In this document: in pieces, positions 3,147-28,996 of the stretch
Numbering within the stretch: position 1 is the first letter of the stretch
Layout of the letters: the number at the start of each line of letters is the position of its first letter
Source: Archangiaceae bacterium
Lineage (GTDB): Bacteria; Myxococcota; Myxococcia; Myxococcales; Myxococcaceae
Reading direction: 5' to 3'
Assembly: GCA_043750125.1 (NCBI GenBank)
Contig: JAYVCD010000365.1
Span: forward strand, 1-35,279
Length of the DNA: 35,279 nucleotides
Notes under the pieces: model-generated
What the model was told of the DNA's origin: nothing
Seen by the model: only the letters and a program-made list of their open reading frames with translations
The model's database searches: none
Program-made: the position numbers and the translations under genes

Positions 3147-4193
3147 TCAGTGGGCTCGCTTTCGTCTCTTGTGGAACTGCACCTGCCACTGATGGACGGC
3201 GGCGTTGTGGCAGGCGAGATCGGGGCAAAAAATGTGGGTCCCGTCATTGCGCGAGACGAAGAACAGGTCGTCGCACTCGATTGGATTGAGGGCGGCGGCA
3301 ATCGCGGCTCCCCCGGGTGAGGCGATGGGCCCGGGAGGCAGACCTTCCGTCATGTAGGTGTTGTACGGGTGCTCGGTCAGCAAGTCGGCGCGGGTGATGT
3401 TCTTCGAGTACCGACCCTTGAGCAGCAGCATCGCGTAGATGACCGTGGGGTCGGTTTGAAGCTTCATCTTCAGCTTGAGGCGGTTGTGAAAGACGCACGA
3501 GATTGTCGGCCGCTCGTCAGCCGCGCCGGTTTCCTTTTCGATGATCGAGGCGAGGGTGACGGCCTGGAGGAGATCCAACTCGATGCCAGGCTTCCGGCGC
3601 GCAGCTTTCACCTGTTCCACCGTGCTCGAGGCCATTCGCTTCAGCACCCCCTCTTCGTTGGCGCCGCGTGGGAACGCGTACGTGTCGGGGTAGAGAAAGC
3701 CTTCGAATGAATCGGCTGGAACGCCGAGCTTCCGTGCGACGGCTGCGTTGGCGGTCAGCTGCTTCAGGGTGGCCAGGCTCAGCTCGAGCCCGGACGACGC
3801 GAGAATGGGGAGGATCTCATCGACCCTCAGCCCCTCGGGCACCGTGAAGGGGTACTGCTTGACCTGCCCGGTGGTGATTTTTTCGATCACTTCCCGCGGA
3901 GTCAGCGTGCCTGAGAACTCGTACTCGCCCGCTTTCAACTTCGGCCCCAGCTCTTCGCGGCGAATCAACGCGTAGAGAAGGTCCGCACTCGAAACGACTC
4001 TTTCGTCGGCCAGCAGGCGCGCAATGCCGCGAGGCGCCATGCCGGCGGGGACGAGGATCAGCTTTTGTTCCGGGCTGCCAAACCCCGTCGCCGCGTAGGC
4101 GGTCAGACGCTGCTCCCTCAAATACCAGAACGCCGCACCCCCGACCGCGGCCACCCCCAGCACCGCGAAGAGGACCCAGACCCTCTTCCTCAC
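3147..4193 (-). CDS. mltG: Endolytic transglycosylase MltG (YceG family)
   Basis: N-terminal TM helix. Motifs LKAGEY, VPEGL, EGFLYPDTY, LASIIEKET, LQTDPTVIY, PYNTY, GLPPGPIASPG. GTG start at 4193 overlaps the ruvX stop. Confidence 0.95.
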   Translation of the reverse strand: MRKRVWVLFAVLGVAAVGGAAFWYLREQRLTAYAATGFGSPEQKLILVPAGMAPRGIARLLADERVVSSADLLYALIRREELGPKLKAGEYEFSGTLTPREVIEKITTGQVKQYPFTVPEGLRVDEILPILASSGLELSLATLKQLTANAAVARKLGVPADSFEGFLYPDTYAFPRGANEEGVLKRMASSTVEQVKAARRKPGIELDLLQAVTLASIIEKETGAADERPTISCVFHNRLKLKMKLQTDPTVIYAMLLLKGRYSKNITRADLLTEHPYNTYMTEGLPPGPIASPGGAAIAAALNPIECDDLFFVSRNDGTHIFCPDLACHNAAVHQWQVQFHKRRKRAH

Positions 4194-4615
4194 TCGTCCT
4201 CGCTCTTCGTTTGGGAATCGAGCCAGCCCTGGAGGATGAGGCAGGCCGCGACCTGGTCGATGACTTCCTTTCGCTTCTTCCGCGAGACGGACGCCTCGAT
4301 CAGCGACCTCTCGGCTGCAACGCTGGTCAGGCGCTCGTCCCAGTACACCACCGGAAGCTGCGCCTGCTCGGCCAACGCCTCGCCGAACTTTCGCGCGTGC
4401 TCGGCGCGCGGCCCCTCGCTGCCATTCATGTTCAGCGGGAGCCCGACAATCAGCCGCACCACGTCTTGTTCTGCAATCAGCCGGGTCAGCTCGTGCAGAT
4501 CCGCGCGCAGGTTGGTGCGGCGCACCGTGGTGATCGGGTGGGCGCTGAAGCCCAGCTCGTCCGAGACCGCCACCCCGACCGTCTTTGTTCCCACGTCCAG
4601 GCCCATCGTCCGCAT
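4190..4615 (-). CDS. ruvX: Holliday junction resolvase-like / pre-16S rRNA nuclease RuvX (YqgF)
   Basis: Motifs GLDVGTKTVGVAVSD, VGLPLNMNG, WDERLTS, IDQVAACLILQGWL. Sits in the classic ruvX-mltG pairing. Confidence 0.95.
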   Translation of the reverse strand: MRTMGLDVGTKTVGVAVSDELGFSAHPITTVRRTNLRADLHELTRLIAEQDVVRLIVGLPLNMNGSEGPRAEHARKFGEALAEQAQLPVVYWDERLTSVAAERSLIEASVSRKKRKEVIDQVAACLILQGWLDSQTKSEDE

Positions 4616-4766
4616 CGGGGCAATCTACCGTTCCAGACGCCACATCTCAGGACGCAGATGGGGTCCGACGGACAAGCGCCTGAATTGAGGCAAATCCTTC
4701 TTGGCCCCGCAGCTGCTCAAGCGTCCCTCACCGCATCCCGCGGGAAGAACCCATACGAGGGCAGGA

Positions 4767-6152: not shown

Positions 6153-6685
6153 AAGCCATGAATGAGCTCAGCCAGGCGGCCGACCCGCAGCAGAAGGGGA
6201 CCCACCCACTCGCCCTCACTTTGCTTGCGCTCGCGAATGGCGAGACGACCTGGGCCGAAGTCGAAGGCTTGACCTTCGAAGACGCCAAGGCAATTGCTCA
6301 AATTGGCTGCGACCTCGCGGCAGGCGGGCGATTGGACGAAGCCCGCATCGTCTTCGAAGGGCTGGTCGCAATGAATCCGCGCGACTCGGCCGCCCACGCG
6401 GCGCTCGGGACGGTCTACCAGAAGCTGGGCCGCATCGAGCAAGCCCTGGCTCAGTACACCGCTGCCCTCTCGGGTGACGCTGCGAACCCCGTCGCCCTGG
6501 CCAACCGGGGCGAGCTTCGGCTCAAAGCCGGCGATCGCCTCGGCGCGGACGATTTGGCGCAGGCGGTGGCCGCGGATCCCCACGGCGAGACTTCCGCCGG
6601 TCGTCGGGCTCGTGGCCTCGTGAAGGCCATCACCCTGGGGACGATCAGGCCCGTGGGCAAAGCCAAAGTCGCCGACCCACGCTAA
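6149..6685 (+). CDS. TPR protein, SycD/LcrH (class II T3SS chaperone)-like
   Basis: Start overlaps the upstream stop (GTGA; alternative ATG at 6158). 'TWAEVEGLTFEDAKAIAQIGCDLAAGGRLDEARIVFEGLVAMNP' is followed by ~3 TPRs, matching the size and layout of LcrH-type chaperones. Confidence 0.7.
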   Translation: MKAMNELSQAADPQQKGTHPLALTLLALANGETTWAEVEGLTFEDAKAIAQIGCDLAAGGRLDEARIVFEGLVAMNPRDSAAHAALGTVYQKLGRIEQALAQYTAALSGDAANPVALANRGELRLKAGDRLGADDLAQAVAADPHGETSAGRRARGLVKAITLGTIRPVGKAKVADPR

Positions 6686-6734
6686 CGAAAACGAGGGCGC
6701 GGGAGTGGGGGACTTCCGAAGACCTCGCCGAGTC

Positions 6735-6763
6735 GGCGGGTAGTGGTTGCAACGCTACCCGCC
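6735..6763. terminator. GC-rich hairpin between convergent genes (possible bidirectional terminator)
   Basis: GGCGGGTAGTG-gttgcaa-CGCTACCCGCC: an 11-bp stem with one G-U pair on the + strand. The U-tail is weak. Confidence 0.5.
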
Positions 6764-6777
6764 CTCCGGTTTCGGCT

Positions 6778-7950
6778 TCATTGAATCGCCGCGAGTCGTT
6801 CGCGAATCGGGGGGTGGGACCAACTCTTCAATACCGCCCACCGGGGAGGGTCCGGATCGGTCTTGTTGATTCGGGCCACTTTGATCAGCATCTGGCGAAA
6901 AGCCTCGACATCACCGGTGAGCTGCAGCCCGAACTGATCTGCGTCCAGCTCACGCTGTCGACTGAACGCTGCGCTGACAGGAGCCGCGGCGACGGTGGCC
7001 AACCAGAAGACCACGAAGATCAGCGGAAGCGTTCGAATGTCCGCCCGCTCTTTCACGCCCCACCAGCCCCTCTGGGCGACGGCTCGAAACAGCACTTCGA
7101 TCAGATACAAAAACGCGAGCAGACACAGCGTCGACGCGAGCTGACCCAGCCACTGTCTTTCGTGAATGTGTCCCGCCTCATGACCCACCACAGCGAGAAT
7201 TTCCCGGGTGTTGAGCTCTTTGAGCAGCGCGTCGTTGAGCACGATGGTCCGGGTCGGACCTTTGCCCGCGAAATAGGCCTGCACCCGCACCGTCTTGCTC
7301 AGCGTTTTTTCGACCACCACTTCTTTGAAGTCGACATTCGCTTTGCGCATCAGCGCGGTGATCTCTTCCCGCAGCTCTCCTTCGGGCAGCGGGGTCTGGT
7401 CGAAATAGATTCGTGCCCGGTATGGGTCCAGGGCTGCTGAAAATACCAGGGCGATCGCGCCGACAATTCCGATCACCAGCCACCATCTTGGCAGTCGCCT
7501 CGCCAGCCCGAACATTCCAAACGCGAGCGCCACCAGCGGGATCATTCCGAGCGCCAGGGACTTCAGCTGATCCCACCCGTAGCTGCTCAGGCTCTGGGTC
7601 GACATTCCGAACCGATGTTCGTGAATGAACTCGAAATAGAAATCCAGAGGAAGAAACGCCAACATACTCCCCAGCTCGAGGACGACGGTGAACAGCAGCG
7701 CGGTACCCCAACCTGAACCGCCCCAGATTCGATCCAGCGCCCGCCTTCCCGTCATCGCTCGGGCCCCAAAGGGGTCCAGGCGCGCCGTCACCCGGCTGGA
7801 CCACGCGTAGAGCGGAACCACCCAGAACCGCAGCGCGAGGGTCCAGAGCAAGAGGCTCAGCCCGTCGTAAGCCAGCCCAAACGCGTAGAGCGGATCTTTG
7901 TAGGCACGAATTTCAGCCAGCGCTTCGGGACTGAAAATCGCGTCGATCAC
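6778..7950 (-). CDS. M48 family membrane zinc metalloprotease (Ste24/HtpX-like)
   Basis: Multiple TM helices, HEAGH zinc motif, 'SRQRELDADQF' third-ligand region, and C-terminal 'SHPPIRERL'. Confidence 0.9.
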   Translation of the reverse strand: MIDAIFSPEALAEIRAYKDPLYAFGLAYDGLSLLLWTLALRFWVVPLYAWSSRVTARLDPFGARAMTGRRALDRIWGGSGWGTALLFTVVLELGSMLAFLPLDFYFEFIHEHRFGMSTQSLSSYGWDQLKSLALGMIPLVALAFGMFGLARRLPRWWLVIGIVGAIALVFSAALDPYRARIYFDQTPLPEGELREEITALMRKANVDFKEVVVEKTLSKTVRVQAYFAGKGPTRTIVLNDALLKELNTREILAVVGHEAGHIHERQWLGQLASTLCLLAFLYLIEVLFRAVAQRGWWGVKERADIRTLPLIFVVFWLATVAAAPVSAAFSRQRELDADQFGLQLTGDVEAFRQMLIKVARINKTDPDPPRWAVLKSWSHPPIRERLAAIQ

Positions 7951-7980
7951 GTGAACGGCTTTTAACTGAAAAGAGCTGCC

Positions 7981-9093
7981 TCAGCCGCGGGGGACCCTGG
8001 CCGGGGGCGACGTTTCTTCTTCGGCTTTTGCGTCCGCGAGCAGCATGTCTTTCATTCGCTTCAGACTTTCGCGGGTTTTCTCGACGAAGGGGCTCGAGGC
8101 TCCGATGCGCTCGGCCGCTTCGAGCGTCCGTTCGTACACCGTGATCGCCTTGGTAATCAGGATCCGGATCTTCTTGCGCAGCTCCTGACTGTAGACGCTG
8201 CCCTCATCCTTGCTCAGCTCGGTGGGGGCGGGGGCGTGCATCATGTGCTCGTACAGGTTTTCGTACAGGCCGCCGATCTGCGCGCCCGCGGCCGTCGCCC
8301 AATAGCCATTGCCGATTCGAATCGCGCGCAGGTAATGACCCTGAGCCGACAACAAGAGCTCGGCTTTGTACTCGACGTCTTTTGCCAGCTGGTCGCTGGT
8401 CTTGTTCGCGTCGAGCGTCACCGCCTCGTAGTGAATCCGGTAGATCTCGCCCATGAAGAACTGCGCTTGAGCCGGGAAATACTCGTCGACCAGGTCTTTG
8501 TCCGGAAGGTCCTGCCAGGTGCTCATCACCTTGCGCAGCGTCGACTCGGCCAGATCCGGTTGGCCGCTTTCCAGCTCGCAGATGCCCTGCTGCACCCGGG
8601 CTTCCATCCGTTTGTTGATCGGCAGGTCACCGCGCGCTCCGATCACCTGCAAGACCGCCACCGCTTCTTCAAAACGGGCCTGGTGGTACAGCGTCTCAGC
8701 CAACCGGAACGCCGCATCGAGCGAATCGCCCGTGCCTTTTGCCGGGTCCGCCAGTTCCAGAAACCGCTGGTGGGCCTCTTCCCAGAGCTTGAGTTTTTCG
8801 AGCGACAGCCCTGCGTTGTAGAGCGCCGCCCGGCGATGAATGCTGTTGGGGTGAAAGTCCGCCAGCCGGCCGAAGTACCGCGCCGCCTGTCCGAAATCGT
8901 CTGACGCGAAGTACGAAGTTCCTCCGGCGAACAGCTCTTCCGCGTTCAGCTTCTCGAGCGCGAGATCTCCGGTGATCACGACTTCGTCGAACTTCACTTC
9001 GTGTTTTCCGTCGACGGTCGAGACCGTCTTGACGTGAGTACAACCGAAGAGAACCAGAACTGGCGCAATCCACAGCTTGCTTCGGTTGGACAC
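7981..9093 (-). CDS. TPR-repeat lipoprotein
   Basis: Likely GTG start at 9093, giving 'VSNRSKLWIAPVLVLFG-C' (lipobox). TPR-like helices follow (ALYNAGLSLEKL, AAFRLAETLYH, AQAQFFMGEIYR). The start codon is uncertain. Confidence 0.75.
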   Translation of the reverse strand: MSNRSKLWIAPVLVLFGCTHVKTVSTVDGKHEVKFDEVVITGDLALEKLNAEELFAGGTSYFASDDFGQAARYFGRLADFHPNSIHRRAALYNAGLSLEKLKLWEEAHQRFLELADPAKGTGDSLDAAFRLAETLYHQARFEEAVAVLQVIGARGDLPINKRMEARVQQGICELESGQPDLAESTLRKVMSTWQDLPDKDLVDEYFPAQAQFFMGEIYRIHYEAVTLDANKTSDQLAKDVEYKAELLLSAQGHYLRAIRIGNGYWATAAGAQIGGLYENLYEHMMHAPAPTELSKDEGSVYSQELRKKIRILITKAITVYERTLEAAERIGASSPFVEKTRESLKRMKDMLLADAKAEEETSPPARVPRG

Positions 9094-9156
9094 GGTTTTT
9101 ACCCTCGAGTCCTCGACTGACAGCCCCTTCACCGCGCCAGTTCCCAAACGGCGATT

Positions 9157-10290
9157 CTAACGGGGGGAGGCCGGCGGTTCGATGTGCGCTTTTCCGAACA
9201 GGTACTGCGACGTGTTCCAGAGGCTTGTGAGGTCATGTACGTCCAGCTCGAATCGGGGAATCAGCACCAGCGGAGTGGGGGCACACAACTCGGCCAGGCG
9301 AGCCACTCCCTTCGCGTCCTGCATCGCCAACTGGTCGTTCTCGTTCAGCGTCGCTTCAACCCGCTTTCGCAGCTCTTCGGGAAGGCGCTTGGCCTGGGCC
9401 CAGAGGGCAGGGGGCACGGGAGGATGCACCCGATTCACCACCACGGCCGCGATGTTCAGATGATTCTGAAGCAAGGTGGTGTGGAAGAAAATGGCCTCGT
9501 CCAGCCGCTCGGCCATCGGGGCGGTCACCAACACGAACGCGGTCGTCTCAGCCTCGAGCAGTGCGCGCGTCTGGTGCGCCCGTTCGCGGAAGCCCTCGTA
9601 CATCGAGCTCATGTGGAGCATGAAATTCGCCAGCTCGTGCAGGGTCTCGGTGCCCGTAAATTTCGAGATCGTCTTCGCGACGTAGCTCGAGCCCAGATTG
9701 AAGAGCTTCAGCCCAATCTTCCCCGCCGCCAGGGCGGGAGTCAGCAGCCACTTGGCCGCGTCGTTGTCGAGAAAATCGAGAATTCGATTGGGCGCATCGA
9801 GAAAATCCAGCGCGTGGGCCGTTGGAGGAGTGTCGAGCACGATCAGTGGGTAGCCGCGCTGCATCCTCAGCTCGCAGAGCTTTTCCATCGCGATGTATTC
9901 TTGCGAGCCCGCCAAGGCCGTCGACAACGATTGGTAGAACCGGTTGCCGAGGATTTTGTCGCGCTTGTCCGGTGGAGCGCGCTGCTCAATCAGATCGTCC
10001 CACGCGCGCTTCATGTCCAACATCATCGCGTGCATCGGCGCCCGTGGTTGTTGGCCCGAGGCCTCGGCCAGAATCGTGTCCGGAATGCGGGTCTCGGCGT
10101 TGCCGAGCTCGGCCAGACCCAGCGAGTTGGCCAGCCGCTTCGCGGGATCAATCGTGCAGACCAGAGCTCCTTTCCCCTCGACCGCCGCCCGCAAGGCGAG
10201 GGTCGCGGCCACGGTCGTCTTTCCGACTCCCCCGGGGCCCACGCAGAGCACCACATTGCTTCTGCGCAGCGCGTCTTGAATTGGATTCAC
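9157..10290 (-). CDS. ArsA/GET3-like ATPase (subunit lacking the signature lysine)
   Basis: Walker A GPGGVGKTT, switch I TIDPAKRLANSLG, switch II LDTPPTAHALDFL, VVVNRV. Confidence 0.9.
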   Translation of the reverse strand: MNPIQDALRRSNVVLCVGPGGVGKTTVAATLALRAAVEGKGALVCTIDPAKRLANSLGLAELGNAETRIPDTILAEASGQQPRAPMHAMMLDMKRAWDDLIEQRAPPDKRDKILGNRFYQSLSTALAGSQEYIAMEKLCELRMQRGYPLIVLDTPPTAHALDFLDAPNRILDFLDNDAAKWLLTPALAAGKIGLKLFNLGSSYVAKTISKFTGTETLHELANFMLHMSSMYEGFRERAHQTRALLEAETTAFVLVTAPMAERLDEAIFFHTTLLQNHLNIAAVVVNRVHPPVPPALWAQAKRLPEELRKRVEATLNENDQLAMQDAKGVARLAELCAPTPLVLIPRFELDVHDLTSLWNTSQYLFGKAHIEPPASPR

Positions 10291-11183
10291 TTCGGCCCCA
10301 GGTGGCCGCTGATCTCTTCAATCGCCGCGCGACCGAAGGTGGGGGTGAACAAACGCGGCACCTTCAAGACCGGGGTCCCCAGCGCCTCGAGCCGCTGAAC
10401 CGCAGACAGCGAAAGCCTGGCGCGCGCCTGGTGGGCAAGCGCCAGTTCCTGAAGAGCTCCCCTGGGAAGCTGCTCGATGTCGGCCGCCGAGAAGCGCATC
10501 GGAATGAAGGCGTTGACCACCACCAACTGGGGCTGAATCTGAACCCGGTCTTTGAGCGCGGCCGCGAGCTCAATCGTCTCGTTGATCGGCATTTCTTCAG
10601 GCAGCGAGACCAGCACCGCAGCCGTCATCGACGGGTCCACCAGGAACTCGCGCATCCACCTTGCGTCGTTGGCGAGCGCGCCCGGTGGAACGGTGTCGAG
10701 GACGACCTTGGGCACCGAGAAGAACGTGATCGCGTGACCGGTCGACGGCGCGTCGATGATGATCCGCTCGAACCGCCAACTGCCATCGGGGCGCTTCTCT
10801 TTGAGGTGGAACAGAATCTTCCCCAGGATCACCAGTTCCTGCAGCGAAGGGACGAAACGCAGAAAGTAACGCACCAGCCGATTTTCGAAGACCGCGTTGT
10901 AGATGCTCTCGAACTTCAGGGTCATCAGCGCGTACTCGCGCATCGCCTCCTGCGGCTTTACGTCCACCGCCCAGAGGTTCTCTTCGAACGACGTAATCTG
11001 GGCCCCCGTCTCGGGTCGTCCCAGCAGTCCCGCGACGCGCTCGCGCGCATTGACCTCGCACACCAACGTGCGCTGGCCGGCTCGGGCGCTCGCCAGTGCC
11101 AGCGCCGCCGCGACCGTGGTCTTGCCCACGCCGCCTTTGCCCGTGACGATGATGAGTCGCTTGTCGAGGAGAACTGGAATCAC
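10287..11183 (-). CDS. ArsA/GET3-like ATPase
   Basis: Walker A TGKGGVGKTT, 'PSLQELVILGKI', 'IDAPSTGHA', 'PEEMPINETIE', VVVN. Probable GTG start at 11183. The stop overlaps the start of the downstream ATPase. Confidence 0.9.
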   Translation of the reverse strand: MIPVLLDKRLIIVTGKGGVGKTTVAAALALASARAGQRTLVCEVNARERVAGLLGRPETGAQITSFEENLWAVDVKPQEAMREYALMTLKFESIYNAVFENRLVRYFLRFVPSLQELVILGKILFHLKEKRPDGSWRFERIIIDAPSTGHAITFFSVPKVVLDTVPPGALANDARWMREFLVDPSMTAAVLVSLPEEMPINETIELAAALKDRVQIQPQLVVVNAFIPMRFSAADIEQLPRGALQELALAHQARARLSLSAVQRLEALGTPVLKVPRLFTPTFGRAAIEEISGHLGPK

Positions 11184-11199
11184 AGTGACTTCTCGAACC

Positions 11200-11228
11200 T
11201 TGACACGCTCGAACGTGGAGATCAGCAT
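11200..11228 (+). promoter_or_regulatory. Candidate sigma70-type promoter for the small protein-ParA operon
   Basis: Perfect TTGACA (11200-11205), a 17-nt spacer, then CAGCAT (11223-11228), ending 10 nt before the ATG at 11239. Confidence 0.45.
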
Positions 11229-11238
11229 CTGCGCGCCC

Positions 11239-11535
11239 ATGCTCACTAACAACCCCGTGATGAAGAAGCTGGTGGCGACCGGCGAAGAGCGAATCGGAAA
11301 GATCGCTCAACAGTTGCTCTCCAACGAGAAGTTCGTGGGCGCGGTTCAAACGCTCGTCTCACGCACCCTGACGGCCAAGGGCACGCTGGACAAGAGCCTG
11401 CGCAGCGCTCTGTCGGCGATGAACCTGCCTTCGACCGGTGACCTGGAAATCTTGCGTGAGAAAGTCGACGAGCTCGAGCGGCTGCTCTCGTCAGTCGAGG
11501 GGAAAATCGATCAGATGATCGAGAAGAAGAAGTGA
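11239..11535 (+). CDS. Small coiled-coil protein, phasin/PhaE C-terminus-like
   Basis: 98 aa of amphipathic helices. 'AMNLPSTGDLEILREKVDELE' resembles the LPSxxD/ExxxLxxRLxELE motif of PHA granule-associated proteins. The stop overlaps the ParA start (GTGA). Confidence 0.7.
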   Translation: MLTNNPVMKKLVATGEERIGKIAQQLLSNEKFVGAVQTLVSRTLTAKGTLDKSLRSALSAMNLPSTGDLEILREKVDELERLLSSVEGKIDQMIEKKK

Positions 11536-12320
11536 CAGTTCGCCGCATCGCCTTCATCAACGAGAAGGGCGGCACCTGCAAAACGACCCTGGCCGTAAAT
11601 ACGGCTGCCTGGTTTGCGCAGAAGAAGGGCCTTCGGGTGCTGTTGATTGATCTCGATACCCAGGGTCATGCCGGCAAGTCGCTGGGCATCGACGTGCGCT
11701 CGCTTCCGACCAATGTCTTCCACTGGCTGACCAACACCAACGTGTCGCTGAAAGACGTGGTGCGTCCGACCGCGATTCCCAGCCTTTTCGTAGTTCCTTC
11801 GTACAAGCAGATGGCCAATTTTCCGCTGCAGGTCGCAAACCAGGTCGACCGCGACGTGCTGCTGCGTGAACGGATGAAAGAAGTCGAAGACGCAGGCTAC
11901 GAGCTGATCGTCTTTGATTCTCCGCCGTCGCTTGGGCTCACCACCACGAACATTCTGCTCGCCGCGACAGAGGTCGTGGTTCCGGTGGCGACCACCTATC
12001 TGGCGCTCGATGGTTGCGCCGAGATGAGCGAGACGGTGCGCAAGGTCTCCGAGAAGGACAACCAGGCGCTCTACATCTCGCTGGTGGTCCCGACGCTCTA
12101 CCGAAAGACCGCCCTGGCCGATGAGGTGCTCGAGCGGCTCGAGCGCTATTTCCCCGGCCGGATGGCGCGTCAGCCGCTGGCGCTCAACGTGGCCATCGAC
12201 GAAGCGCAGAGTCACGGGAAGACAATCTGGGAGTACGCCCCCTGGAGCCGAGGCGCCACGCTGCTTCAATCGGTGGCCGAAGACGTAGACGCTGCCGGCA
12301 GACGCACTGCGGTTCCCTGA
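11532..12320 (+). CDS. Orphan ParA/Soj family ATPase
   Basis: NEKGGTCKTT (variant Walker A), LLIDLDTQGHA, FDSPPSLG, 'IDEAQSHGKTIWEYAP'. No parB is adjacent. Confidence 0.9.
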   Translation: MTVRRIAFINEKGGTCKTTLAVNTAAWFAQKKGLRVLLIDLDTQGHAGKSLGIDVRSLPTNVFHWLTNTNVSLKDVVRPTAIPSLFVVPSYKQMANFPLQVANQVDRDVLLRERMKEVEDAGYELIVFDSPPSLGLTTTNILLAATEVVVPVATTYLALDGCAEMSETVRKVSEKDNQALYISLVVPTLYRKTALADEVLERLERYFPGRMARQPLALNVAIDEAQSHGKTIWEYAPWSRGATLLQSVAEDVDAAGRRTAVP

Positions 12321-12341
12321 AAACCGGGTCCCCCTTCGGAA

Positions 12342-12944
12342 CTAGCCCTTCTTCTCTTCCAGCGCGTCGAGTTTCTTTTCCAACGCTTCGATGCGCTGCA
12401 CCAACGCGCCCAGATCGCGGCCCAGGGCAGGAAGGTTGCCGACGACGTTGTCGACCACTGCTTTCACCCGCTCGTCGACCTTCTTCTGGAAGTCTTCCAG
12501 CGCTCTCTGGCTGCCCTTGAGCAATTCGACCGGTGAGAGATTCTGACCCGAGGGGACTTCGACGTTCGACTTGTCGCCCGTTCCGTCTTCGCGACCCAGC
12601 AGCTTATCGAGCCGCGACTCGGCCTCTTCCCTGATGCTGGTGACGCGGGGCGTGACGCTCTTGATGAACTCGGAAATCTGCTCGCCCGGGCGACGAATGA
12701 TCTCGCGCAACACCGACAGCGGCATCCGGGTGGTCTTCTTTTCTTCTTCGAATACGATCTGCGCCAGCGTGACTGAGGTGAGGTCTTCCTTGGTCCGGTT
12801 GTCGACGATTTTCACCTCGACGCCCTGCTTCACCATCTCGGCGATCTCATCGAGCGTGACGTAGCGACTCTCGACCGTGTCGTAGAGCTTGCGGTTGGTG
12901 TACCGCTTGATCACCTTGGGCTCGGAAGCCGCTTCGTCGCTCAT
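12342..12944 (-). CDS. PhaR-type (PHB_acc_N) DNA-binding domain protein with C-terminal coiled coil
   Basis: 'IKRYTNRKLYDTVESRYVTLDEIAEMVKQG...VDNRTKEDLTSVTLAQI' is the PhaR N-terminal signature. ATG at 12944. Confidence 0.9.
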   Translation of the reverse strand: MSDEAASEPKVIKRYTNRKLYDTVESRYVTLDEIAEMVKQGVEVKIVDNRTKEDLTSVTLAQIVFEEEKKTTRMPLSVLREIIRRPGEQISEFIKSVTPRVTSIREEAESRLDKLLGREDGTGDKSNVEVPSGQNLSPVELLKGSQRALEDFQKKVDERVKAVVDNVVGNLPALGRDLGALVQRIEALEKKLDALEEKKG

Positions 12945-13042
12945 GTTGTGGGTGGAAGCGCACTCGAAATTGACGCGCTGCGCGAACGCGAATAGCACCG
13001 GGGTGTTTGACCCGCAAGGCTATAGTCCCCGGGCCGCCGGCC

Positions 13043-14557
13043 ATGATCGTCAAATGCGAGCAGTGCCAGACACGGTTCAAGATCCCCGACGACAAGGTCA
13101 CTGAGAAAGGGGTCAAGGTCCGCTGTACCAAGTGCCAGCACACCTTTCGGGTGAAGCGGGACGGAACTTCCTCGCCCGCCGGCCAATCGCAAGGCGCGAT
13201 GCCCGCCCTTCAGGTCGCTTCGGTCCCCAAGTTGGTGGACGATCCTTTCGCCGCGTTCGGCGCAGCGAGCGAAGAGGACGTAGGTGAAGCGACCCGGCCC
13301 GGGATGTATGCGATGGGCGTCGAAGCCTCGCGCCACGCCGAACCGCCGCTCCAGCCTTCCTTCGCGGCCCAGAGGGCACTGCCGGCCCATTTGTTCGACG
13401 AACCGACCCGGGTGGGCGCTTTTCCTTTTCCTCCTCCGGGCCGAAAGGGTGTGCCCGACGAGGTCACCCACCGGTCTTCTCCGTTCGACTTTGCCGCTGC
13501 GCTGGGAGCAGCCGAGCCGTCCGCCCCGCCGCCTCCCTTCGACTTTGCCGCGCCCCCCGTGCCCGAGCCGCCCACCCAATACGAGGCGCCAGCGGCGCGC
13601 GCGCAACCTCCGGTTCCCTTCGACCCCTCGCCGGACAACGACCCCTTCAACAGCATCGACTTCGGCGGGGGCGCGCTGACGACCCCCAACGCGCCCATCG
13701 TCAAAGAGCCCGAAGCGCCCTCGGTCTTCGGCGACGGCGGCGGAGATTTTTTCGCAGCCGCAGAAGAGCCTTCTGTGACGCAGAACATTCGGCCCGATTC
13801 CCTGGGGCTGAGCGAAGAGGGGGAAGTCGAAGCAGACACCAGCCAGCGTGCCGCGCTGTTCGACATGCCGCCTCCCGAGCCCAATCGGCCGCCCGAGACC
13901 TTTGATTCCCCCAGTCCCGAGGTGGGCCCGGCGCCGCTGGCACTTCCCCGCCGCGACAGCGTTCCGTTGGGAAGAATCACGGCTCCCGAGTTGTCGGTCG
14001 AAGCGATTGCGCCCAGGCGAAAGCTCGGGGGCATGATTCTCAACGTGGCCATCGCCTCGATGCTGGTGAGCCTGTTGACGGTGATCGTCACCGTCTACCT
14101 CAGCGAAGGAAAGGTGGAACTGGCCTCGTTCAACCTCGAGCGACTCAAGGCAACTTTCACCGCGCCGACCGATTGGGCCGCACTCGACATCTCCAACGGC
14201 CTGTATGAAACGCGGGCCGGAAGGCCGGTGTTCTTCGTGCGCGGGGAAGTGAAGAACCGCAGTGGGAAGGCCACCCGGGCGAAGGTTCGCGCCGAGATTC
14301 TCGATGGGGACAAAGTCATTCGCCACGCCGACGCGTGGATTGGTGCGGCCCCCACGCCAGAAGACCTGTATTTGATCTCGGTCGCCGATGACGTCGAGCG
14401 GTTGTTGCAGAAGCTGGAAAAGTCAGCCGCTGAAGTGATGCCGAACGAAAAGCGCGGCTTTCTGGTTCCGTTCTTCGAGTACCCACCGGACCTGAAAGGT
14501 TTTCGCGTCAGGGTGACGGTGATCGAGTCCGATCACAAAGAGACCGCGGCGCGCTGA
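13043..14557 (+). CDS. Zinc-ribbon (MJ0042-type finger) / DUF3426-like bitopic membrane protein
   Basis: 'CEQCQTRFKIPDDK...VRCTKCQHTF', a long Pro/acidic linker, one TM helix, and a C-terminal Ig-like domain (FFVRGEVKN). Confidence 0.85.
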   Translation: MIVKCEQCQTRFKIPDDKVTEKGVKVRCTKCQHTFRVKRDGTSSPAGQSQGAMPALQVASVPKLVDDPFAAFGAASEEDVGEATRPGMYAMGVEASRHAEPPLQPSFAAQRALPAHLFDEPTRVGAFPFPPPGRKGVPDEVTHRSSPFDFAAALGAAEPSAPPPPFDFAAPPVPEPPTQYEAPAARAQPPVPFDPSPDNDPFNSIDFGGGALTTPNAPIVKEPEAPSVFGDGGGDFFAAAEEPSVTQNIRPDSLGLSEEGEVEADTSQRAALFDMPPPEPNRPPETFDSPSPEVGPAPLALPRRDSVPLGRITAPELSVEAIAPRRKLGGMILNVAIASMLVSLLTVIVTVYLSEGKVELASFNLERLKATFTAPTDWAALDISNGLYETRAGRPVFFVRGEVKNRSGKATRAKVRAEILDGDKVIRHADAWIGAAPTPEDLYLISVADDVERLLQKLEKSAAEVMPNEKRGFLVPFFEYPPDLKGFRVRVTVIESDHKETAAR

Positions 14558-14559
14558 CG

Positions 14560-15312
14560 ATGACGGGCGACGACGACGCGCAGAAGGTGGTGCGTCGACT
14601 TCATGCCCTGGGCGGCGGCCCGGAAGTGATGCGCAAAGCCGCAGCGCGATTGCTGGGCCGGCTGGCTCCGACCGATGCCACCTTGTTGCTGGGGCAGGTG
14701 ATTCGGCTCTCGCGGGGCGGGTGGGAACCGGCCGCCGGGGTCCTGCCGGCCTTCACCCGCGCGCTCGACATGGAAGCCGCCCAGATTCCGTACGCGACCG
14801 CGCTGCGTCGCATCGCAGCCCTGCAGGATCTCGACGAGGTCGAGCTGCTGTTTACCGATGCTCCAGCCCAGCGCGAATACGAGCTCGAAGCGGCCAAGCG
14901 GGCCGACCTGAAGCTGTTCACCCAGCCGCTGGGGCGTCTGAAACAAATGGCTCGCCTGACCCGAAACCCCGACGAGTTGTCGAAGCTCGCCGTCGCGACG
15001 GACCCTTCCGTGATTCGCAACGTCCTCATCAATCCACGCCTGACCGAAGCCCTGGTCGTGCGCATCGCGGCGCGGCGGCCGGCGCGCCCCGAACCGCTGG
15101 TGGAGATCTGGAAGTCCGCCCGCTGGTCGGTTCGCCCCCTGGTCCGCAAGGCGTTGGCCTTCAATCCGTACTTTCCACCCGAAGTGGCGGCAAAGATCGT
15201 CCCATTGCTTTCGGAAGCCGAGCTGCGCGAGCTCACCGAAGATCGCGCCGTGCATCCGGTTCTTCGGGAACAGGCCAGGGTGTTGCTGCTGCCCCACTTG
15301 AAGGTCCCGTGA
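14560..15312 (+). CDS. Hypothetical helical-repeat (leucine-rich variant/HEAT-like) protein
   Basis: Starts 2 nt after the upstream stop. Repeats 'DPSVIRNVLINPRLT' and 'PLVRKALAFNPYFP'. Confidence 0.7.
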   Translation: MTGDDDAQKVVRRLHALGGGPEVMRKAAARLLGRLAPTDATLLLGQVIRLSRGGWEPAAGVLPAFTRALDMEAAQIPYATALRRIAALQDLDEVELLFTDAPAQREYELEAAKRADLKLFTQPLGRLKQMARLTRNPDELSKLAVATDPSVIRNVLINPRLTEALVVRIAARRPARPEPLVEIWKSARWSVRPLVRKALAFNPYFPPEVAAKIVPLLSEAELRELTEDRAVHPVLREQARVLLLPHLKVP

Positions 15313-16736
15313 CTCTGCGGCGCATTGACGGGCCCTGTCCGCTCTCGCAGTCGGTGCTGTGGCGATGGCAGCGGCGTTTCTACGAAGAGCGGGGGCCGAC
15401 CGCGTTCACTTCCGGCGTGGTTCCGTGGCGCATCACTTCGTGCCTGTTGCTCGCCTCGGCCTATGCCGATGCAGCCATCGCTTTCGCGCGCGATCTTCCG
15501 GGCCCGCTTCAAATTCTCGAGTTGGGCGGCGGCCTGGGGCGAATGGCGTTTAACCTGATGCGCGCACTGGACGAGCGCAGCGTGCCGTTTCACTACCATT
15601 TTACCGATGCCTCGGCCGCGAACGTCGAAGCCGTCGCGCAGCATCCCCAGCTTCGAGCGCGGCTCGACGAAGGCCAACTGTCGCTGCAGCAGCTCGACGC
15701 CCTGGCTCCCCACGGGCTTTCACTGCCCCCGGGCCCGACTGTGGTGGTGGCCAATTACCTGTTCGATTCGCTTCCTCACGAGTGTTGGCGCTGCGAGGCA
15801 GGAACGGCAGTCGGGCAAGAAGTAGAGGTGTGGGCGGCGGGGCCCACGGCTTGCCTCGAAGACAGCGACTGGAAGTTCATCGACGGTGCAGCGCGCCCGC
15901 CGCCTGCAGTGGTGGGGTATGCGGCTCACCTCGGCTCGGGGCGCTTCCTCTGGCCCAGTGGGGCGATCGCCTGCATGCGGGCCATTGCCGGGCCGCTTCG
16001 GCGGCCTCACCTTTGGCTGGTGGCGGACAAAGGGCCCGCGGCGCTGGCCCAGTTGAGGGGGAGGGACACTGCGAGCCTGGCCCGCCACGGCTGCATCTCG
16101 GCGTCGGTCAACTTCGATGCCTTGCGCGCCTGGGCGGGCTGGCGCGCGTTCTTTGCTCCCCAGCTGCCCGAGATGCGTTTTGGCGCCTATGCCCTGGTTC
16201 AAGGGCTCGGCCGCCGCTCGGTGCCTGCCCTCGCCCGTGCCTGGGGCGAATCGACCGGGCTCAATCTGGCATTGCAGGCCGAGATTCTGCTCGAGGAGCT
16301 GGGCGCGGAGCCCGCGGTCACCGTGCCCCAGCTGCTGCAGGCCCTGGCCTTCACCCGTTTTGATCCCGACGCGCTGTTGCGCTTGTCGGCGCGCTTTCGG
16401 GAAAAGCTCTCGGCTCAAACGCCGGCTGGGCAGGTCGCCGCGTTGGTGCTGGCGCTCGAAGAGACCTGGAACAATCGATTTGTGCTTCCAGAGCCGCACG
16501 ATCTGGCCTTCGAGATTGCGACGGTGCTTCACCGCGCAGGTCAGCTTTCAGCAGCGGCCACCCACTACCGCCTTTCGATCGACTTACGGGGGCCTCACGC
16601 GACGACCTACTTCAATCTGGCCCTCTGTCTGTTGGACCTGGGAAAGCAGTCCGAGGCACGCACGGCTCTGGAAGGAACTTTGGTGGTTGATGCCGCGCAT
16701 CCCCGGGCGCGCGCCCTGCTCCTGGCCACGGGCTAG
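15309..16736 (+). CDS. Putative SAM-dependent methyltransferase (MidA/NDUFAF7-like) with C-terminal TPR
   Basis: GTG at 15309 overlaps the upstream stop. Motif I-like ILELGGGLGR, 'YHFTD', 'VVANYLFDSLP', and TPRs at the C-terminus (TYFNLALCLLDLG). Confidence 0.7.
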   Translation: MTLRRIDGPCPLSQSVLWRWQRRFYEERGPTAFTSGVVPWRITSCLLLASAYADAAIAFARDLPGPLQILELGGGLGRMAFNLMRALDERSVPFHYHFTDASAANVEAVAQHPQLRARLDEGQLSLQQLDALAPHGLSLPPGPTVVVANYLFDSLPHECWRCEAGTAVGQEVEVWAAGPTACLEDSDWKFIDGAARPPPAVVGYAAHLGSGRFLWPSGAIACMRAIAGPLRRPHLWLVADKGPAALAQLRGRDTASLARHGCISASVNFDALRAWAGWRAFFAPQLPEMRFGAYALVQGLGRRSVPALARAWGESTGLNLALQAEILLEELGAEPAVTVPQLLQALAFTRFDPDALLRLSARFREKLSAQTPAGQVAALVLALEETWNNRFVLPEPHDLAFEIATVLHRAGQLSAAATHYRLSIDLRGPHATTYFNLALCLLDLGKQSEARTALEGTLVVDAAHPRARALLLATG

Positions 16737-26387: not shown

Positions 26388-28400
26388 TCAGCGTCCAAAG
26401 AGGCGTTTGAGACCCTGAAACAGGCCCTTGGTCTCGCTCGAAGCTTCGCCCGGAAGAGGGGCGTCGGCAAAGAGTCGGGCCCGCATTTCATCGCTCGCGT
26501 CGGCGGTCGAAAAAGAGGCAGTTCCCTTGCGGCCGACCGCTTCCACGTCGAGCCGACCATCGGCGCTGACGGCAAATCGAAGCAGCAGCTCTCCGGGCTT
26601 GTCGACGACGGCATGCAGGGCGCCGAGGTACTCATTTTCATCGGCCCGGGGGTTGGTGCCCTGAAAGACAGCCACTTCCACCGGCCGATCATGAACCGGG
26701 ACGCAGAGGGTCTTTTCAGCCGGAAGGCGGGTGTTCCGCTCGAGCACCCGCAGGAACCCGCCGCCTTTGACCGCGACGCCGATCGGCGCTGAGAGGACCT
26801 CGGACAACGACACGCCTGCCTTTCCCCGCTCGGATTGCACCAGCGAGTGGCCGAAGATCGCCGCGCCGAGCGCGACCGCCCCTTGAGGATCTACGTCCGT
26901 CCGCGGTGCGCGGCCGAGCAACGCCTCGAGTCGCTTGCGAACCAGGGGCGCACGGCTCTGACCTCCGACCAGCAGCACTTCGTCCAGCGCCGAGGCATTG
27001 ACCCGGCCGACCTCGAGCACGATGCGGGTGACCTCGGACGTGCGTTCGACCAGGTCGGCCGTGAGCAGATCAATCTGGGCGCGCGTCAGGTTGGCCCGAA
27101 GATCCACCGGCGCTCCGGCTTCATCGCTGACAGCGAGCGGAACGTGCACCGAGGCGTCCTCTACATCTGAAAGCGCAATCTTCGCGACCTCGGCTGCGTC
27201 CCGAACGCGTTCCCACGAAACGCGGGACTGCCTGAGGCGAAGTTGCAGGGGCTGGGGCAGCGTCAAGGCCAACGCATCGGCGACGCGCTCGTCGAAGTCG
27301 ACCCCGCCCAGAAAATTGTCGCCTCCGGTGGACACCACCTCGAGGTCATCGCCCGTCATCTCGACCACCGAAGCGTCGAAGGTCCCTCCTCCGAGGTCGT
27401 AGACGAGCAGGCGTTTGCGCGCGAGGCCGCGGCCATAGCCGAACGCGAGCGCGACCGCGGAAGGCTCGTTGAGGATCCGCAGCACCTCGAGCCCGGCCAG
27501 ACGCCCGGCTTCGAGCACCGCGCCGCGCTGATGATCCGAATACCATGCGGGCACGCAGAGCACGGCGCGCTTGAGCTCGCGCTCGAGCACGTCCTGGGCG
27601 CAGCTCTTGATTTCTTTGAGCAGCAACGAGGCGAGCTCCGGCAGCGACCACACCCGACCCCCGAGCTCCGCCCCGGCGTCGCCGTCTTGATCTGCGACCA
27701 CCTTGAACGGAAAGCGCGGCAACAGCTGCTGCACGGCTTTGGAGCGTGCCCTTTGGCCGAGCAGGCGCTTCAAGCCGGTGACCGCAAAATCCGGCTGTTC
27801 AGCGCGCAGGCCGCGGGCGGCCAGGCCGACCCGAAGCACCCCTTTGTCGTCGAGCGCGACCAGGGACGGCAGCGCAAACTCGGTGGGCCCGCCGAGGGGA
27901 ATCAGCTGCGGCGCGCCGTCGAGCCAGAGGGCCGCTCGGCAGGTGGTGGTGCCCAGGTCGATGCCCAGCACCACGTCGTCGGCGAGCAGGGCGGCCGCCG
28001 GCTTCAACCCCCGTCCTGGGCTTGCCGTGTTCGGAATTGGAACCGAAGGCTCGCTGGCCAGGGGTTCGGCGTTCAGCACCCCTTCCCGAAACGAGAGAAT
28101 CTTGTCGATCAACGCGCGGCTTCGGGCATCGAGGCGGACGAAGCGCACCAGCATCCCGCTCTTGCCCGGAGTCTCGTCTTCCTGCACCTGCTGCACCGTG
28201 CCCTCGCCGCGCATCAGGCGATCGCCACTTTGAAGCACGAGCTCGAACGCGATTGCGGTGCCCAGCGGCTTGACGGCGCGGGTGGCGATGAAAATGCCTC
28301 CGCGCGCGACGTTCTGTCCGTAGCGCTCGACGAACTCGTCCTCGCTCGCAAACGGGAGCCGGATGCGCAGCGCGACCGGCTTGGCGTCGGAAGCAGTCAC
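26388..28400 (-). CDS. TIGR02266/PilZ-like domain fused to an Hsp70 (DnaK-like) protein
   Basis: N-terminal 'FVERYGQNVARGGIFIAT...GMLVRFVRLD'. Hsp70 motifs GIDLGTT, VPAWY, NEPSAVALAFG, YDLGGGTFD, GGDNFLGGVDFD, VLLVGGQSR. GTG at 28400 overlaps the upstream stop. Confidence 0.9.
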   Translation of the reverse strand: MTASDAKPVALRIRLPFASEDEFVERYGQNVARGGIFIATRAVKPLGTAIAFELVLQSGDRLMRGEGTVQQVQEDETPGKSGMLVRFVRLDARSRALIDKILSFREGVLNAEPLASEPSVPIPNTASPGRGLKPAAALLADDVVLGIDLGTTTCRAALWLDGAPQLIPLGGPTEFALPSLVALDDKGVLRVGLAARGLRAEQPDFAVTGLKRLLGQRARSKAVQQLLPRFPFKVVADQDGDAGAELGGRVWSLPELASLLLKEIKSCAQDVLERELKRAVLCVPAWYSDHQRGAVLEAGRLAGLEVLRILNEPSAVALAFGYGRGLARKRLLVYDLGGGTFDASVVEMTGDDLEVVSTGGDNFLGGVDFDERVADALALTLPQPLQLRLRQSRVSWERVRDAAEVAKIALSDVEDASVHVPLAVSDEAGAPVDLRANLTRAQIDLLTADLVERTSEVTRIVLEVGRVNASALDEVLLVGGQSRAPLVRKRLEALLGRAPRTDVDPQGAVALGAAIFGHSLVQSERGKAGVSLSEVLSAPIGVAVKGGGFLRVLERNTRLPAEKTLCVPVHDRPVEVAVFQGTNPRADENEYLGALHAVVDKPGELLLRFAVSADGRLDVEAVGRKGTASFSTADASDEMRARLFADAPLPGEASSETKGLFQGLKRLFGR

Positions 28401-28996
28401 TGCAACGCGACGCCATCGCTCCCGACGACGACCAGCTTGAGCCCCGGCGCGATCGCCGCTTTGGGCGCCTCGAAGAGCAGCACCCGTTCGACTTTCTGGT
28501 CGGGCTCGAGGCTGACCGACAGCTCGCGGCTGCCCGCCAGCAGCTGGGCATCGCGGGCAATCGGGTATTCGTGAGACCCGGCAACCAGCTTTGCCGCGCT
28601 GAGATCCAGTGCCCCTCCACCCACCCGCTGCGCCGAGAGGACGACCTTGATGAAGTAATCGTCCGACGTGAGGGACATCTTTTCGCCCCCGATGCTGTGC
28701 GAGGTCTCGACGGACGAAACCCGGCACGCTGCGAGGCCGCAGCTGAAGTCGGGAGAGCCGGCAATCGGCAAGGTCTTGGGGACATCAGGCATCGCCGCAC
28801 GCACCGCCAGAGGGCTGGGTTCTGCGGGAGCCGCAGGCAATGAAGGTCGCGCGGGGGTTCCCCCTTTCTCGAGCCGGTCTTTTTCGGCCTGCAGCTTCTT
28901 CAAAAGTCGGTCTTCGGCGGAAACAGCTTCTGGTTTCGGGCAGCCCAGCAGCATCAGTCCGAGCGCTGCAACGGTCCAACGCGCCCGGACGCTCAT
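28397..28996 (-). CDS. Lipoprotein, Ig-like (DUF4352-like) hypothetical
   Basis: Lipobox LLG-C and C-terminal 'LEPDQKVERVLLFEAP'. Starts immediately after the alaS stop. Confidence 0.7.
   Translation of the reverse strand: MSVRARWTVAALGLMLLGCPKPEAVSAEDRLLKKLQAEKDRLEKGGTPARPSLPAAPAEPSPLAVRAAMPDVPKTLPIAGSPDFSCGLAACRVSSVETSHSIGGEKMSLTSDDYFIKVVLSAQRVGGGALDLSAAKLVAGSHEYPIARDAQLLAGSRELSVSLEPDQKVERVLLFEAPKAAIAPGLKLVVVGSDGVALQ

Follow-up and report, generated by a model that had tools for sequence, protein, structure and literature searches.

What do two ArsA-like ATPases, a small coiled-coil protein, a ParA ATPase and a protein with the DNA-binding domain of PhaR do when they are encoded side by side? 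This question is raised by five adjacent genes at positions 9157–12944 of a 35,279-nucleotide stretch of DNA, hereafter the window, which is contig C365 (JAYVCD010000365.1) of the 6.17-Mb genome of an Archangiaceae bacterium (460 contigs, 89% complete; G+C content of about 60–70%). The nearest named records to the window are metagenome-assembled genomes (MAGs) and isolates of Myxococcaceae and Archangiaceae. The original prediction, made from the sequence of the window, read the five genes as a unit that targets and positions storage granules or lipid bodies. Here, we find that they form the central part of a larger gene neighbourhood, which is conserved across Myxococcota, and that the PhaR paralogue encoded in it is independent of polyhydroxyalkanoate (PHA) synthase. 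At a little short of an even chance, we favour a module centred on the BagAB ATPase pair, served by the PhaR paralogue as its DNA-binding protein and by a free-standing copy of the zipper module of this paralogue, with ParA as an accessory; it would not be a storage-granule system.

Open reading frame (ORF) calls and matches to Pfam and NCBIfam recovered all five genes at the positions originally given. The two ArsA-like genes are coupled through an overlap of the bagA stop and bagB start codons (GTGA), and the pair is divergent from the 98-aa gene, whose TGA stop overlaps the GTG start of parA, again as GTGA. On the minus strand, the gene of the PHB_acc_N protein faces parA and converges on the others, as had been described. 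A Pfam scan of the 31 ORFs in the window found no ParB family and no PhaC family. That these genes had not been described as one system was borne out by a literature search, which found no account of the cluster, the supplementary tables of Myxococcus omics papers being outside its scope; the "phasin" matches in Myxococcus papers were the word "phasing".

The neighbourhood of the BagAB pair

The two ATPases are encoded on the minus strand at 9157–10290 (BagB-like, 377 aa) and 10287–11186 (BagA-like, about 299 aa). The ORF of the latter spans 10287–11252; its start was inferred, with a probable GTG at 11186 and the Walker A motif beginning a few residues after it. Both proteins carry the Pfam family ArsA_ATPase (3.2e-24 in BagB and 4.7e-30 in BagA). 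Their top-scoring NCBIfam models are BagB (NF053621, 3.5e-95, 319.2 bits) and BagA (NF053622, 7.9e-38, 130.7 bits), even though these scores are below the equivalog cut-offs of 521 and 400, respectively. Furthermore, residues 11–357 of the BagB-like protein align full-length with residues 19–366 of PDB entry 6bs3_B (2e-68). The GTGA overlap, the ArsA_ATPase family in both proteins and the similarity to 6bs3_B identify an adjacent, co-transcribed pair of ArsA/Get3-fold ATPases. Such a pair probably forms a heterodimer-type Get3/ArsA-fold ATPase, like the NCBIfam BagAB models labelled MYCTU, and is encoded with envelope proteins. An ArsA arsenical pump (TIGR04291) was rejected because the two proteins score only 51.9 and 52.9 bits, the cut-off being 650, and both are single-domain; Pfam found no ars-operon families among the 31 window ORFs. 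A defence system was also rejected, since the sole PADLOC match was a weak P-loop hit of BagB to mad8 (2.1e-6).

BagAB of Mycobacterium tuberculosis (Rv3679–Rv3680) resembles the window pair in consisting of two ArsA/Get3-fold ATPases, and the window genes, adjacent and coupled, have BagB and BagA as their best NCBIfam models. Unlike the mycobacterial proteins, the myxobacterial pair scores under the equivalog cut-offs. The mycobacterial pair was compared at the protein level only; the myxobacterial one is followed by genes for a tetratricopeptide repeat (TPR) lipoprotein and for an M48 protease, and it points away from the phasin-like, ParA and PhaR-like set. According to the accessible portions of two reports, mycobacterial bagAB mutants show altered tolerance of glycerol, nitric oxide, citrate and streptomycin (PMC10597346, PMC12216072).

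The original unit of five genes was drawn too short, because three further genes travel with the cluster. The first lies 9 bp downstream of bagB (7981–9147, minus strand) and encodes a protein with matches to TPR families and to YbgF/BamD-like NCBIfam models; the lipobox (VLFGC) in its translation predicts a lipoprotein. The last gene of this minus-strand operon (6778–7950) encodes an integral membrane zinc protease of the M48 (HtpX/Ste24) type, with six hydrophobic segments (Peptidase_M48, 2.8e-26; Peptidase_M48_N, 4.8e-14). On the opposite side of the cluster, divergent from the PhaR-like gene, a gene at 13043–14557 (plus strand) encodes a 504-aa membrane protein composed of an MJ0042-type Zn ribbon (Zn_ribbon_4, 6.8e-15), a Pro-rich linker, one transmembrane segment (about residues 327–345) and a C-terminal domain. 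The N-terminus of this protein resembles gliding-motility GltJ (NCBIfam, 4.2e-11) in the Zn ribbon part only.

To follow the cluster through the phylum, window proteins were placed by tblastn on 80 named Myxococcaceae loci, 16 loci from other families of the order and 28 loci from the wider phylum. Only loci with the small gene and sufficient flanking DNA were counted, and families are given by code. In Myxococcaceae, bagA is divergent from the small gene in 79/79 loci, parA lies directly downstream of it in 74/75 and the PhaR-like gene is convergent in 58/58. The corresponding fractions are 7/14, 10/15 and 8/12 in other families of the order, and 18/23, 7/22 and 13/19 in the wider phylum. ParA is missing from a single one of the 75 testable Myxococcaceae loci, L109 (a MAG contig, 1595–2500), where the convergent PhaR-like gene comes directly after the small gene. 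The full cluster is present in records of Myxococcus, Corallococcus and Archangium.

The small protein is present in 41/41 relatives, covering nine families of the order (the match in G028 is weak, 2e-5), and a profile found it in 308 of 401 Myxococcota genomes, a tally which includes one unpublished genome (G220), on which no other result here depends. By family, it matched in 169/171 genomes of f1, 61/67 of f7, 16/17 of f8, 11/11 of f25 and 9/20 of f14, and in none of the 18 genomes of f12 or the 21 of f18. Co-conservation thus extends well past close relatives, in agreement with the original prediction. As a module of exactly five genes, the cluster stands only in part: the complete set recurs in f1, f3, f7 and f10, but ParA is optional and the components are separately lost.

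A second comparison was anchored on the best BagB neighbourhood in 15 genomes outside the order. Three of these loci (L159, L167 and L171) have the order Zn-ribbon gene, PhaR-like gene, parA and then the divergent bagA–bagB–TPR–M48 genes, with no small gene, and the others contain bagA–bagB(–TPR) alone. The TPR gene follows bagB in 10/15 of this set and in most fetched loci across the phylum, synteny of the M48 protease extends over Myxococcaceae and families f2, f10 and f12, and the Zn-ribbon membrane protein accompanies the PhaR-like gene across families. BagB-like genes were found in 31/33 genomes outside the order, including 9/11 without a small-gene match. The stable core of the neighbourhood is bagA–bagB–TPR lipoprotein(–M48), and the small gene, ParA and the PhaR-like/Zn-ribbon pair are frequent, separately losable companions.

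Second ArsA/BagAB-like pairs are common in the phylum. The source genome (G000) carries one on contig C213 (L183:5008–12750; 312 and 371 aa, 38% identity to BagB), which adjoins a phosphopantetheinyl transferase gene and an oleABCD-like set (ketoacyl synthase III-like, alpha/beta hydrolase, AMP-binding and 3-beta-hydroxysteroid dehydrogenase-like). A link between ArsA pairs and Ole clusters was rejected, since the adjacency was seen in the source genome only and in 0/15 other loci.

The small protein and the PhaR paralogue

The small gene (11239–11535, plus strand) begins about 52 bp away from the start of bagA, which is on the opposite strand. Its 98-aa product is a three-helix protein in the AlphaFold2 (AF2) model (helices 6–28, 30–60 and 66–97; mean predicted local distance difference test score 74.6) and has no hydrophobic segment. 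It had been called phasin-like, and it does match PF05597; the match reaches 26.5 bits against a gathering cut-off of 28.8 and covers profile positions 67–124 of 126 only, leaving the N-terminal half unmatched. For the phasin model TIGR01837, the score is 23.7 bits against a cut-off of 94.7.

The PhaR-like gene (12342–12944, minus strand) encodes 200 aa from its ATG, and its ORF extends to 12998. The match to the DNA-binding domain PHB_acc_N at its N-terminus is strong (8.6e-27; 93.5 bits against a cut-off of 25), and the motif KRYxNRKLYDT is invariant in 30 orthologues. The protein scores 84.8 bits with TIGR01848, below the cut-off of 109.45, and Pfam found no PHB_acc (PF05233) domain in it. 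Its AF2 model contains a confident N-terminal domain (10–71), a disordered linker (120–135) and two C-terminal helices (138–169 and 171–199).

Alignment of a profile of 30 small proteins with a profile of 30 PhaR-like proteins by hhalign gave a probability of 95.1% and an E-value of 3.1e-8, with residues 31–90 of the small protein aligned with residues 142–200 of the PhaR-like protein. In the controls, reversed profiles gave E-values of about 4e-3, and all 20 of 20 column shuffles gave 0.15. Pairwise BLASTP recovers the same stretch weakly (E 0.013), and the hidden Markov model of the small protein weakly matches the PhaR-like ORF of L159 (E 0.011). Both proteins contain the motif NLP(S/A)xxD/E-L followed by a heptad helix, and their AF2 models give matching helix pairs. 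As judged from these profiles and models, the two-helix module at the C-terminus of the PhaR paralogue has a free-standing copy in the small protein. Searches of PDB sequences with the profiles of both proteins returned coiled-coil noise only, and Foldseek with the PhaR-like model returned nothing at E ≤ 0.001. Among 7992 longer candidates scored for a fused small protein, two were found, both apparent gene-call artefacts; this speaks, if weakly, for a protein that exists on its own. The family comprises 1290 representatives at E ≤ 1e-3. Its Atlas clusters are from Myxococcota only, and ten members in the tail of the family carry names no more informative than "Deltaproteobacteria bacterium".

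The source genome encodes a second small protein of the PF05597 type on contig C41 (L179:1245–1466; 73 aa, 38.3 bits, above the cut-off), and its gene is directly upstream of those of an SLT transglycosylase and a PilZ protein. This placement suggests that the same genome employs the "phasin" zipper module in further settings unrelated to PHA.

PhaF and PhaI of Pseudomonas (PF05597) offer a parallel, in that the small protein and the C-terminus of the PhaR-like protein match the C-terminal part of that profile. PhaI consists of the module alone, as does the small protein. In PhaF, as in the PhaR paralogue, the module and a DNA-binding domain are joined in one protein (PMC13052382, in excerpt). 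In contrast to PhaF, the DNA-binding domain of the PhaR paralogue is an N-terminal PHB_acc_N rather than a histone-like C-terminal tail, and in contrast to both PhaF and PhaI, the myxobacterial match is sub-threshold, lacks the N-terminal half of the profile and does not depend on a PHA synthase.

The relation of the PhaR paralogue to PHA synthase was assessed in 74 genomes (the 41 relatives and 33 genomes from other orders). PhaC_N (PF07167) had any match in 35/74 and a full-length match in 3/74; the other matches cover profile positions of about 117–173 only, in alpha/beta hydrolases of mostly about 330–480 aa. At least two PHB_acc_N copies were present in 28 genomes with a PhaC_N match and in 2 without. 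A single copy was present in 7 with and 34 without, and no copy in 0 with and 3 without. In genomes for which both coordinates are given, the additional copy is mostly on the PhaC_N contig, within about 10 kb. The copy in the cluster, in contrast, is present irrespective of PhaC_N. In G028, only the pha-linked copy occurs and the cluster is also missing (L130). Since the second copy tracks PhaC_N and the cluster copy does not, two paralogous lineages can be distinguished, a PHA-linked PhaR and a BagAB-linked PhaR-like protein, and the window protein belongs to the second. The PhaR paralogue is independent of PHA synthase. It shares a strong PHB_acc_N with PhaR (TIGR01848) and differs from it in the missing PHB_acc domain, the sub-cut-off score, the C-terminal phasin-like zipper and the lack of a phaC link.

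The source genome also has a separate pha-type locus on contig C112 (L178:5779–9621), with a 187-aa PhaR containing both PHB_acc_N and PHB_acc. Its PHB_acc (PF05233) match of 26.1 bits is just below the cut-off of 27, and this PhaR is more canonical than the window copy. Its gene is divergent from those of an AMP-binding acyl-CoA ligase and a 431-aa PhaC-like alpha/beta hydrolase, which are followed by a 1624-aa ORF without a Pfam match.

Between bagA and the small gene (11187–11238), a TTGACAC element resembling a −35 box lies upstream of the small gene; 99 such intergenic regions were extracted and 45 were inspected by eye, and the element is present in most. Beside the start of the PhaR-like gene (12945–13042 in the window, and in related loci of several families), a TGACGC(A/G)(G/C)TGCG-like element was recognized by eye, which could be an operator or a −35 region. 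A promoter and terminator scan of 6500–14800 gave no promoter-like sites and three terminator-like sites, fewer than in shuffled sequence.

In the mechanism that we favour, the PhaR paralogue would bind DNA through PHB_acc_N, probably at its own promoter and at the neighbouring divergent promoters, and would oligomerise through its C-terminal zipper. The small protein may join this zipper, or compete for it or for its binding partner. It would thereby modulate the regulator or link the PhaR paralogue to partners, which is formally parallel to PhaI and PhaF. ParA, where present, probably partners the module, which would come from the small protein or, in loci lacking the small gene, from the PhaR paralogue. 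The output would be control or spatial organization of BagAB/TPR/M48 function, which we take to be the handling of hydrophobic or membrane proteins.

Several points weigh against this mechanism. The small gene stands alone in several families (L121, L122, L134 and L145), and BagAB–TPR occurs without a nearby small or PhaR-like gene in L161–L166 and L168–L170, so that the links are frequent rather than obligatory. Synteny within Myxococcaceae partly reflects shared ancestry, as flanking YceG and TPR178 are also conserved, and all synteny fractions are conditional on having picked the loci by the presence of the small gene or BagB. The operator-like motif, itself a by-eye call, is not universal and is missing from the inspected sequences of Myxococcus and Corallococcus. 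Profile similarity can be overstated where coiled-coil segments are involved, but the shuffled and reversed controls argue otherwise here. The sequencing runs containing the region are six DNA runs from two studies and no RNA runs. Finally, the accessible parts of both BagAB publications (PMC10597346, PMC12216072) report phenotypes only and no cellular role.

ParA and alternative roles of the cluster

The ParA ATPase (11532–12320, plus strand; 262 aa, GTG start) is Soj-like (AAA_31, 3.4e-42, 144.8 bits; Thermus Soj, PDB 1wcv, 4.1e-36), and its score with NF041546 is 88.9 bits, below the equivalog cut-off of 180. It has a deviant Walker A motif (KGGxxKTT), whose residues K12, G13, G14, K17, T18 and T19 are invariant in 28 orthologues together with R191. 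Where ParA occurs with the small gene, it always follows immediately after it. Across 92 loci, the stop codon of the small gene and the start codon of parA overlap in 22 and are separated by 0–15 nt in 34, by 16–60 nt in 32 and by more than 60 nt in 4. In distant families, ParA is 51–57% identical to the window protein, about the same as BagB, which suggests an old component that was lost repeatedly.

These properties would suit a nucleoid-based positioning or segregation system in the lineages with ParA, in which ParA and the zipper module act on a non-granule cargo, either a chromosomal site bound by the PhaR-like protein or a BagAB/TPR/M48/Zn-ribbon envelope assembly. The invariant Walker A lysines and R191, the constant adjacency of parA to a gene of the module, which is the small gene except in L159, L167 and L171, where it is the PhaR-like gene, and the high identity over long distances are in line with such a role, which we nevertheless consider unlikely. 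ParA has repeatedly been lost while the cluster persists and is hence not central, and the overlap with the small gene is not conserved (22/92, with gaps of at least 16 nt in 36/92). By gene context, the arrangement resembles McdAB, ParC/PpfA and PomXYZ, with a Soj-like ParA directly after a small coiled-coil gene and no ParB found nearby. In contrast to those systems, the small partner is kept in many genomes without ParA, and ParA also occurs without the small gene.

Less probable still is that gene order is conserved with no functional coupling, the BagAB operon, ParA and the PhaR-like/Zn-ribbon pair being independent of each other. Each sub-unit does occur without the others, and unrelated flanking genes are also conserved within Myxococcaceae. 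However, the genes keep their adjacency and orientation in families that belong to different classes, where the proteins are only 30–50% identical and the flanks differ, and the module common to the small protein and the PhaR-like protein suggests that the two are functionally related.

A further reading, which we regard as improbable, makes the phasin-like zipper, contributed by the small protein or by the PhaR paralogue, the partner of the orphan ParA in those Myxococcota that have it; together with the DNA-binding PhaR paralogue and BagAB, it would organize a hydrophobic cargo, such as lipid bodies or a membrane-protein delivery site, along the nucleoid. If this were true, no earlier ParA system would have had an adaptor of the phasin type, and bacterial BagAB would gain its first cellular context. 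Whether or not a locus has ParA, the sequence of the small protein is equally conserved, which is an argument against ParA as its main constraint. Moreover, since ParA is missing from most genomes with the cluster outside Myxococcaceae and is present without the small gene in three loci, the small protein is not simply a ParA adaptor. A complex prediction of ParA with the small protein, as the original prediction had proposed, here with two ParA and two ATP, gave a score of 0.00 and a mark of 0.32 with its controls not folded, and it counts neither way. A ParA with a phasin-type partner would be new, and the present data do not point to granules.

It is quite doubtful that BagAB has the small protein, and perhaps also the PhaR paralogue through its C-terminal module, as a client or regulator whose amphipathic helices are held in the groove of the ATPase: the small gene is divergent from bagA in the fractions given above (79/79, 7/14 and 18/23 loci) and Get3-fold proteins bind hydrophobic helices, their bacterial homologues possibly being general chaperones (PMC6593721, in excerpt), but the small protein lacks a hydrophobic segment, many genomes have BagAB–TPR without the small gene, and BagAB has no known client.

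The proposed storage-granule link

The original model had the small protein act as a phasin that tethers PHA granules or lipid bodies to nucleoid-bound ParA, while BagAB loads amphipathic proteins and the PhaR-like protein provides feedback. Its sequence basis lies in the sub-threshold matches to PF05597 and TIGR01837, the PHB_acc_N domain and the position of the small gene immediately upstream of parA, overlapping it in 22/92 loci. The source genome also has a PhaC-like gene. The available text of a 2025 review (PMC13052382) describes polyhydroxybutyrate (PHB) granules as tethered by PhaM, PhaF and PhaH, none of them related to ParA; no ParA is known there, and the review leaves room for further elements to be discovered.

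The expected co-occurrence with phaC did not hold: a PhaC_N match is missing in 31 of the 63 genomes with the small gene, including all 10 of f3, f4, f7 and f8. Nor does the genome contain a canonical wax ester synthase/diacylglycerol acyltransferase (WS/DGAT), the sole PF03007 match (26 bits) being inside a desaturase-condensation fusion. The PhaC-like gene is adjoined by its own, separate phaR, and the phasin match is limited to the C-terminal half of the profile. In addition, ParA is missing in 15 of the 22 testable loci of the wider phylum, where the small protein is equally conserved. A link to storage granules or lipid bodies is thus not supported, given the independence from PHA, the separate phaR and the partial phasin match, and we give the granule model little chance. 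In the parts available of the main text of two lipid-body papers (PMC3950526, PMC4048283) and of bioRxiv 10.64898/2026.08.28.747804, none of the cluster genes appears, their supplements being outside the scope.

Among the remaining features of the window, a YceG/MltG-family gene lies at 3147–4643. A 671-aa protein with Methyltransf_28 and C-terminal TPR is encoded at 14721–16736 (plus strand), a position downstream of the cluster that it keeps in many Myxococcaceae. At 26388–28727 (minus strand), a gene encodes a 779-aa Hsp70-family protein with an N-terminal extension of about 250 residues without a Pfam match. Rfam gave no matches in the whole window.

The component families of the cluster are known, whereas the association of their genes and the relation between the PhaR paralogue and its free module appear to be undescribed. 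For annotation, a consequence is that most of the Myxococcota proteins with PHB_acc_N or with the label "phasin" are not PHA proteins. Get3-like ATPases of the BagAB type occur widely among bacteria, and reports on them, as far as their accessible text goes, are limited to phenotypes. The cluster provides concrete candidates for partners and regulators of BagAB, namely the TPR lipoprotein, the M48 protease, the PhaR paralogue with its free zipper and, often, an orphan ParA, and Myxococcus xanthus offers a tractable, non-pathogenic host in which to test them.

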